A DNA stretch of 64,000 nt. Source: a virus (Duplodnaviria; Caudoviricetes). Position numbers and translations under genes: made by a program. The notes beneath the pieces were generated by a model. It made no database searches and was not told the DNA's origin. It saw only the letters and a program-made list of their open reading frames with translations. Shown here in pieces: positions 15,440 to 15,684 of this stretch; position 1 is the stretch's first letter, and every line of letters starts with the position of its first letter. The stretch lies in the IMG/VR virus record IMGVR_UViG_3300025849_003344; one strand, written 5' to 3'.

Positions 15440-15472
15440 CCGCATTAATTTAGAGTGTATCATTTATATTAC
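15440..15472. repeat. 33-bp dispersed repeat, copy 1
   Basis: CCGCATTAATTTAGAGTGTATCATTTATATTAC; 1 mismatch to copies 2 and 3. Confidence 0.95.
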
Positions 15473-15684
15473 AATAATTCGTTTGGATTGTTTTTGTAAG
15501 TTTTAATAAGTTGTGAAAGTGTTAGATTGAAAAAGATAGTGGTTTGAGGGTTATGAGGAGGGAAGATTAGAAAATCGGTAGTAGATGGAAGTTTAAGTGA
15601 TTTGATATATTTAATGATTTCGGGAATAGTGTTGAAAGATAGTGGTTGATTGTAGTTAGATGGGTTAATAAGTGTATAAGTCAT
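15469..15684 (-). CDS. 71 aa hypothetical protein; coding strand almost free of G
   Basis: AAGGAG SD, own promoter, 5 G in 216 nt. Confidence 0.6.
   Translation of the reverse strand: MTYTLINPSNYNQPLSFNTIPEIIKYIKSLKLPSTTDFLIFPPHNPQTTIFFNLTLSQLIKTYKNNPNELL

Follow-up and report, generated by a model that had tools for sequence, protein, structure and literature searches.

Why should a small phage gene be written almost without G on its coding strand, and is the cause to be sought in its RNA, its protein or its template? The gene lies in a 64,000-nt stretch of viral DNA (IMG/VR record IMGVR_UViG_3300025849_003344, hereafter the window), which is part of an uncultured marine T4-like phage whose major capsid protein shares 61-66% identity with the best matches among cultured phages. 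The ORF in question (15469..15684, minus strand; 71 aa) was analyzed by composition, homologues and predicted fold, and its protein family is called family A here. Our recount agrees with the initial annotation, which had reported 5 C in the 216 nt of the plus strand and 2 C in 15481-15681; the five lie at 15472, 15480, 15576, 15621, and 15682, and the coding strand has 81 A, 70 T, 60 C, and 5 G. The binomial test proposed there gives p = 1.9e-15 against the C frequency of the window plus strand (0.204). The poorest 216-nt stretch of the window contains 4 C and the next non-overlapping one 20, with a mean of 44. Flanking genes had been described as ordinary in G, and the other likely genes of the window do have 15-31% G on the coding strand. 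In the ORF, G occurs in the start ATG, in three CGA contexts and in the last sense codon, and nowhere else. Because the coding strand is enriched in C (28%) without any excess of A (0.38, compared with 0.28-0.41 in other genes), the deficit is not G-to-A damage. The G-purged ORF is a real and highly non-random feature.

The deficit is a property of the family. Homologues are 59-97% identical and occur in at least three genomic contexts, and all 18 distinct coding sequences contain 2-6 G (1-3%), none having normal G. Relative to the window copy, dN/dS is 0.10-0.36 and dS reaches about 1.2. Across the 18 sequences, G occupies 5 of 548 fourfold sites (0.9%, against 10.4% in window genes) and 5 of 210 twofold sites (2.4%, against 30.6%), in pooled counts that are not independent; taken by itself, the window copy shows a synonymous deficit that is only marginal (p 0.04 and 0.08). 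The suspicion of selection against G, with avoidance extending to synonymous sites, is thus supported: G stays away from these sites in the homologues even though dS reaches about 1.2. Amino acid usage follows, with 3 of 70 residues needing a G (43% expected) and 67 needing none. In two-state variable columns, G alternates with A in seven cases and with C in one.

The product of family A is predicted by AlphaFold to adopt a compact alpha/beta fold (pLDDT 85, pTM 0.74). Fold searches with this model gave weak hits (best Z 4.4, no Foldseek E below 0.001) and no convincing structural relative. Searches of Pfam, PHROGs, PADLOC, NCBIfam, PDB and cultured phages gave no match for family A, and a search of 1.8 billion proteins added one frameshifted relative and nothing else. 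Purifying selection, together with the predicted foldable product, argues that this is a real protein gene. An acidic DNA mimic of the Ocr, Ugi or Arn type was considered and rejected, given only 3 Asp/Glu next to 5 Lys in 71 aa; such a protein is not possible for family A because Asp and Glu codons need G. A tie to the adjacent radical SAM gene was likewise rejected, as that gene is missing from most family A carriers. In one clade, an HD_4 (ppGpp hydrolase-like) gene lies five genes downstream of family A (L014:7343-7885); it was considered in connection with GTP shortage (see below) and is absent from the other family A contexts seen. In two loci, the gene 3' of family A is almost G-free in its first 21 codons and normal thereafter (L027:10239-10430, L028:10239-10430).

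The initial annotation had also credited the ORF with a strong Shine-Dalgarno (SD) sequence, repeat boundaries and its own promoter. On the minus strand, AAGGAG lies 6 nt 5' of the ATG (15691..15696) and is kept or shortened in homologues, and two 89-nt repeats that are 78% alike (15384-15472 and 15705-15793) bound the ORF on both sides, with a third copy at 16834-16922. Repeat comparison (family D1) indicates that the upstream PeSL-like copy (15705..15793, minus strand) carries a hairpin (15748-15767) and the promoter, and that the downstream copy (15384..15472, minus strand) gives the TAA stop, a terminator hairpin and the promoter of the next gene. The promoter claim holds in part. A minus-strand motif at 15713..15741, composed of a -35 TGTACA (15741-15736), a 17-nt spacer and a -10 TAGAAA (15718-15713) preceded by TGG, recurs 5' of cassette genes in all loci, but it is not listed in a scan for the sigma-70 consensus; from its recurrence we infer that it is the early promoter of the purged ORF. 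An intrinsic-terminator-like hairpin (15427..15446, minus strand), found by a terminator scan and RNA folds, would end the G-poor transcript.

With this predicted promoter and terminator, the ORF appears to sit in a PeSL-type cassette: an ORFan stands between direct repeats with a stem-loop terminator and an inferred early promoter, and the cargo is gained, lost or replaced among close relatives. In the accessible part of the report on the T4-type phages RB49 and phi1, PeSL cassettes are likewise small ORFans between stem-loop/early-promoter direct repeats, with cargo gained, lost and swapped between close relatives (PMC2839356). The likeness lies in sequence features and cargo swapping; a base-purged cargo gene is not described in that part of the report, whereas the cargo in the window is purged. 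A divergent family A copy (L049:262-444) ends after about 41 codons with a PeSL hairpin inserted in frame, and looks like a scar of cassette recombination.

Purged genes form a wider class. A scan of 2.6 Mb of related DNA covered 3019 SD-bearing ORFs; 20 of these have less than 5% G and none has less than 5% of any other base. Three further G-purged early families, unrelated to family A, are found in related phages, some of them in the same slot: family B (L046, L241, L214), family C (L057, L189, L185, L190, L260) and family D (131 aa; L111). The common GPGGGN family has partly purged members (L001, L144, L054, L197). All purged families stand directly behind inferred early promoters, and promoter and SD retain about a dozen G. 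In L046, family B and then family A form a two-gene G-poor operon (L046:383-874) with an internal SD-like AACGAG. The two genes and their spacer together span about 490 nt, only 14 of them G, and next comes an ordinary GPGGGN gene with a promoter of its own. G is scarce in the spacer too, which argues that the rule acts on nucleic acid.

Relatives with ordinary G show how the purging came about. Family B, a basic protein of 54-62 aa, exists in purged, CG-tolerant and ordinary versions (L241:3409-3582, L214:9821-9985, and L068:9703-9873), with 1 G in L241 versus 28 G in the ordinary homologue of L068, and it directly precedes a GPGGGN gene in L241 and L214. Family C is homologous to the GPGGGN family (hhalign 95.7%, E 9e-9), with the glycine loop replaced. 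In near-identical phages the same slot holds family A, family C, a recoded GPGGGN gene, or nothing. For example, the neighbors in L189 match those in the window at 97-100%, yet the slot holds family C, and in the close relatives L053 and L056 the slot lacks a purged gene. Ordinary-G homologues of two purged families, together with slot swapping, argue that G was purged in place, repeatedly, and at the nucleic-acid level. The same homologues speak against the earlier suggestion that the gene was captured from a skewed donor.

What, then, could make template C, or mRNA G, costly? The window encodes a T4 gp42-type dCMP hydroxymethylase (35706..36389, minus strand; E 1e-72 to PDB 1b49) with about 53% identity to T-even gp42 and with the catalytic Cys and the cytosine-specifying Asp matching the positions changed in mutant PDB entries; ThyX is also encoded. 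This homology indicates that the phage hydroxymethylates its cytosines. According to profile and cluster matches, a probable trio for hypermodification of hydroxymethylcytosine (hmC) is encoded at 32447..35334 (minus strand), comprising an uncharacterised protein of 335 aa, a PLP-type enzyme of 295 aa and an aGPT-Pplase/AADT-like protein of 338 aa. The trio has a match to PHROG 7093 and Atlas matches of 0.93-0.99 to clusters with PF18723/PF18724 in 10-36% of members, and its genes travel together with gp42. By analogy, it is probably an amino-acid-transfer-like hmC hypermodification machinery (PMC8989533). Its enzyme types resemble those of thymidine hypermodification in ViI and M6 (AADT and PLP decarboxylase), but the trio is coupled to a dCMP hydroxymethylase and no 5-HMUDK kinase was identified (PMC8989533). 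Genes labeled KdsA-like, KdsB-like, cupin-like and cytidylyltransferase-like, partly from our reading of their sequences, adjoin gp42 (window 36367-38760). One of the sister genomes G019 and G059 has the PLP gene and the other does not, which suggests that the modification module (window 32447-36389) is swapped between close relatives.

gp42 is present in seven of the eight strongly purged carriers that reach the region (the window, G001, G003, G010, G011, G059, and G046), a tally that is ascertained because gp42-positive genomes were reached by following purged genes. The eighth, L185, has an alpha-glucosyltransferase, and the position of gp42 would fall beyond the locus. Most contigs are fragments, so that modification genes are known for only about eight carriers of purged genes, and eleven further carrier contigs are too short to show gp42. 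We read the putative glycosyltransferases of G046 and G034 as such from an N-terminal motif. Six gp42-negative genomes lack any strongly purged gene, T4 and RB69 (minus one 18-kb part of RB69) lack any purged gene, and trio-bearing G005 and G060 (77% and 86% complete) have neither a purged gene nor a purged tract. Modification classes are interspersed on a helicase tree with many unresolved forks; the pattern is therefore unlikely to be the habit of one clade, although the sample is small, fragmentary and ascertained through the purged genes. GPGGGN genes are present in gp42-negative phages too, so their protein is not specific to protecting modified DNA; its predicted structure (pLDDT 95) is that of a small ferredoxin-like fragment, with a best Z of 6.3 and a weak likeness to T-even frd.3-region proteins. 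In G039, a gp42-negative contig of 56% GC, the GPGGGN gene is mildly G-poor (p 3e-6).

The residual G carry a second signal, which the initial annotation had missed along with the wider class of purged genes, although the selection against G that it suggested is supported. In the window gene, all three internal first-position G follow C, and in L009, L022, L057, and L189 every internal G does so. Four GPGGGN genes (L001:5718-5900, L144:11702-11917, L054:1670-1963, and L197:3117-3299) are recoded such that nearly every avoidable G comes after C. The preceding codon ends in C before 14 of 15 G-codons versus 8 of 31 other codons in L001 (p 2e-5), and before 14 of 15 versus 6 of 39 in L144 (p 1.5e-7); codon shuffles agree, and both genes keep 11-14% G. 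In family C genes the corresponding counts before G are 4/4 and 5/5, whereas in window genes overall the preceding C has a frequency of 0.20 before G and 0.19 otherwise. The family D gene (L111:11639-12034; 6% G) has no family match, has 15 of its 24 G after C, and stands in a genome with gp42 and the trio. On the template strand, C is thus mostly avoided unless followed by G.

This CpG exemption tracks the modification genes. In trio-bearing carriers, 55 of 82 residual G come after C, compared with 4 of 17 in the glycosyltransferase class (Fisher p 0.002), which consists of two G-poor genes (in G046 and L185) with no trio near them. GPGGGN genes of gp42-negative G024, G026, and G029 have normal G and no CpG exemption. 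Within family A, six copies (L024, L026, L040, L028, L030, and L045), whose contigs do not reach the modification genes, contain G preceded by T or G; a strict CpG-only rule for the whole family was rejected on account of such exceptions. A genome-wide or early-gene-wide CpG shift was rejected as well, since ordinary early genes show no depletion; in ordinary promoter-proximal genes of trio-bearing genomes, the density of non-CpG G is 0.179 versus 0.180. The exemption could also reflect the preference of a host enzyme and not that of the phage.

The explanation that fits best, and to which we would assign about half of our belief, is that the template has been kept free of the cytosine that the phage itself hypermodifies, so that it can still be read when a modification-dependent glycosylase or nickase of the host attacks. 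A C-free template was among the options of the initial annotation, and it is favored over the others because gp42 is present and the CpG exemption tracks the modification genes. The gene would be an accessory, predicted immediate-early gene selected for its protein and, separately, for a template free of non-CpG C, a proposal that we see as evenly poised between right and wrong. Against it count the G after T or G in several family A copies, the dozen or so G left in promoter and SD, and the mildly G-poor GPGGGN gene of gp42-negative G039. Judging from homology, the gp42-type enzyme would replace C by hmC, and the trio would then add a group to hmC after replication, at C before A, C or T but not before G. 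Context-specific post-replicative modification has precedents in phages, at GA and GGC in CAjan (PMC7544227), and a GpC-specific one has been described (PMC8256090). The window gene and three unrelated cassette families do avoid coding G unless it follows C, which ordinary early genes do not do. In some hosts, a Brig-like glycosylase or a nicking nuclease may damage incoming DNA at the modified bases. The glycosylases Brig1, Brig3-BapA, and Dag1/Dag2 excise modified phage bases and so exert the type of pressure needed (PMC11078745; 10.64898/2026.02.25.707755; 10.1101/2025.10.29.685425); abasic sites made by Brig1 were proposed to impede phage transcription (PMC11078745), and glycosylase-generated abasic sites to make transcripts misincorporate A (10.64898/2026.02.25.707755).

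Non-CpG template C would number about 37 in an ordinary gene of 210 nt but is down to one in the G-purged coding sequence, and a template with so few targets would outlast all other genes. With nearly all of its C on the non-template strand, the gene would still be transcribable, and close two-strand lesions would be rare. The weakest step is the last, that the product may be a protein for counter-defence or rescue that is required just then; an anti-defence role is deduced from nothing more than position, mobility and cost. Ordinary early genes are undepleted and some trio genomes lack a purged gene, which makes a general transcription handicap unlikely; the pressure would then be conditional, and strong enough to change proteins. 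The leading DNA of T5 and T7 is free of restriction sites, and MazF-resistant mRNAs lack ACA. Like these, the window gene would be a gene under attack that lacks the attacker's target. It differs in its CpG exemption, in that one strand has lost an entire base even though this costs amino acid changes, and in that the attack would likely fall on the base which the phage itself modifies. In the accessible parts of the Brig and Dag reports, the escapes described involve loss of the modifying enzyme, and a lesion-proof gene or inhibitor is not among them.

Every template C is also an mRNA G, so the composition data would all fit an mRNA that avoids G. The cost of G could lie in an RNase or RNA-modifying toxin directed at it, in chain termination by viperin-type ddhGTP, or in a shortage of GTP (through the stringent response or a nucleotide-depleting defence). 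That ORFs among the 3019 are G-poor and never C-, A- or U-poor agrees with this, and a per-G cost would account for the 2-5 tolerated G. However, avoidance at the RNA level offers no reason why the CpG exemption should track the phage's DNA-modification genes, and the genes of L001 and L144, at 11-14% G, would still be penalised by GTP shortage or a chain terminator. RelE-type cleavage is ribosome-dependent, unlike a purge of all three codon positions and the spacer, and retained G are mostly in GA, which is the CmdT-type target. Escape from a GA-directed RNase or ADP-ribosyltransferase, as once proposed for this ORF, is not supported, on the same ground: the internal position-1 G, including the two 5'-most internal G and the G of conserved Glu-69, are all in GA, and every G context is depleted. 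We regard avoidance in the mRNA as less likely than template protection, and as unlikely in itself. A reading without any host defence accounts as well as template protection does for the asymmetry between strands, for the CpG exemption and for the tie to the trio: host RNA polymerase may slow down or stall at hypermodified template C, or Mfd may be recruited to it, and the purged genes would encode the factors, made first, that ease this. Yet promoter-proximal genes of trio-bearing genomes are undepleted, trio-bearing G005 and G060 do without a purged gene or tract, and L053 and L056 leave the slot without one; the chance of this explanation is small.

A host DNA cytosine deaminase or base editor with its own dinucleotide preference, hitting template C regardless of hypermodification and so turning mRNA G into A, would follow the same strand logic, and G does alternate with A more than with C. 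But G/A exchange is merely a common transition, a context set by the host would not track phage modification genes, and the C-rich coding strand would mutate heavily at replication, which renders this improbable. A skew that arises from protein composition, from unstructured and fast-translated mRNA, or from Rho-loading C-rich RNA would suit a coding sequence that barely folds and in which 67 of 70 residues need no G; as synonymous sites and the spacer are purged as well, the same proteins exist with normal G, and CG-ward recoding raises pairing potential, we consider it very improbable. Extreme skew, and nothing else, speaks for a sequencing artefact, a one-off G-to-A hypermutation scar or skewed-donor capture. 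The feature is present in dozens of independent assemblies, C is raised without an excess of A, and a dS of about 1.2 has passed without the return of G; an APOBEC-like or DGR-like scar was rejected because the product base is not in excess and coding constraint is kept. These origins are scarcely credible.

Base-purging itself is well supported, and template protection as its cause is probable but unproven. The PeSL cassette is already known as a vehicle; what is new is the purging, of which targeted searches of the open-access literature gave no description. Here, genes in nature have been rewritten in a three-letter alphabet on one strand, and a rule at the level of nucleic acid has cost their proteins Gly, Trp, Val, Asp, and Ala. 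Should this rule stem from the C that the phage itself modifies, it represents a counter-defence principle absent from the open-access literature searched; it would predict the context of an uncharacterised DNA modification and point to candidate inhibitors of antiviral glycosylases. In general terms, phages with hypermodified DNA might evolve lesion-proof counter-defence genes in a reduced codon set, on a template without their own modified base, such that tolerated dinucleotides reveal modification specificity and composition finds inhibitors; we put this forward tentatively, and with more doubt than confidence. If true, one could read from those dinucleotides where a modification not yet described is placed (in this case on hmC in all contexts but CpG), and could find inhibitors of modification-dependent defences by nothing more than base composition.

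Elsewhere in the window, a c-type cytochrome-like protein with a signal peptide and a CxxCH motif is encoded at 45374-45745; it was not found in the eight related contigs compared. A 53-nt palindromic repeat at the 3' end of a DUF932 gene recurs after the gene for a 320-aa membrane protein, where it is fused to the third PeSL-like copy (window 16834-16922 and 17930-17982).
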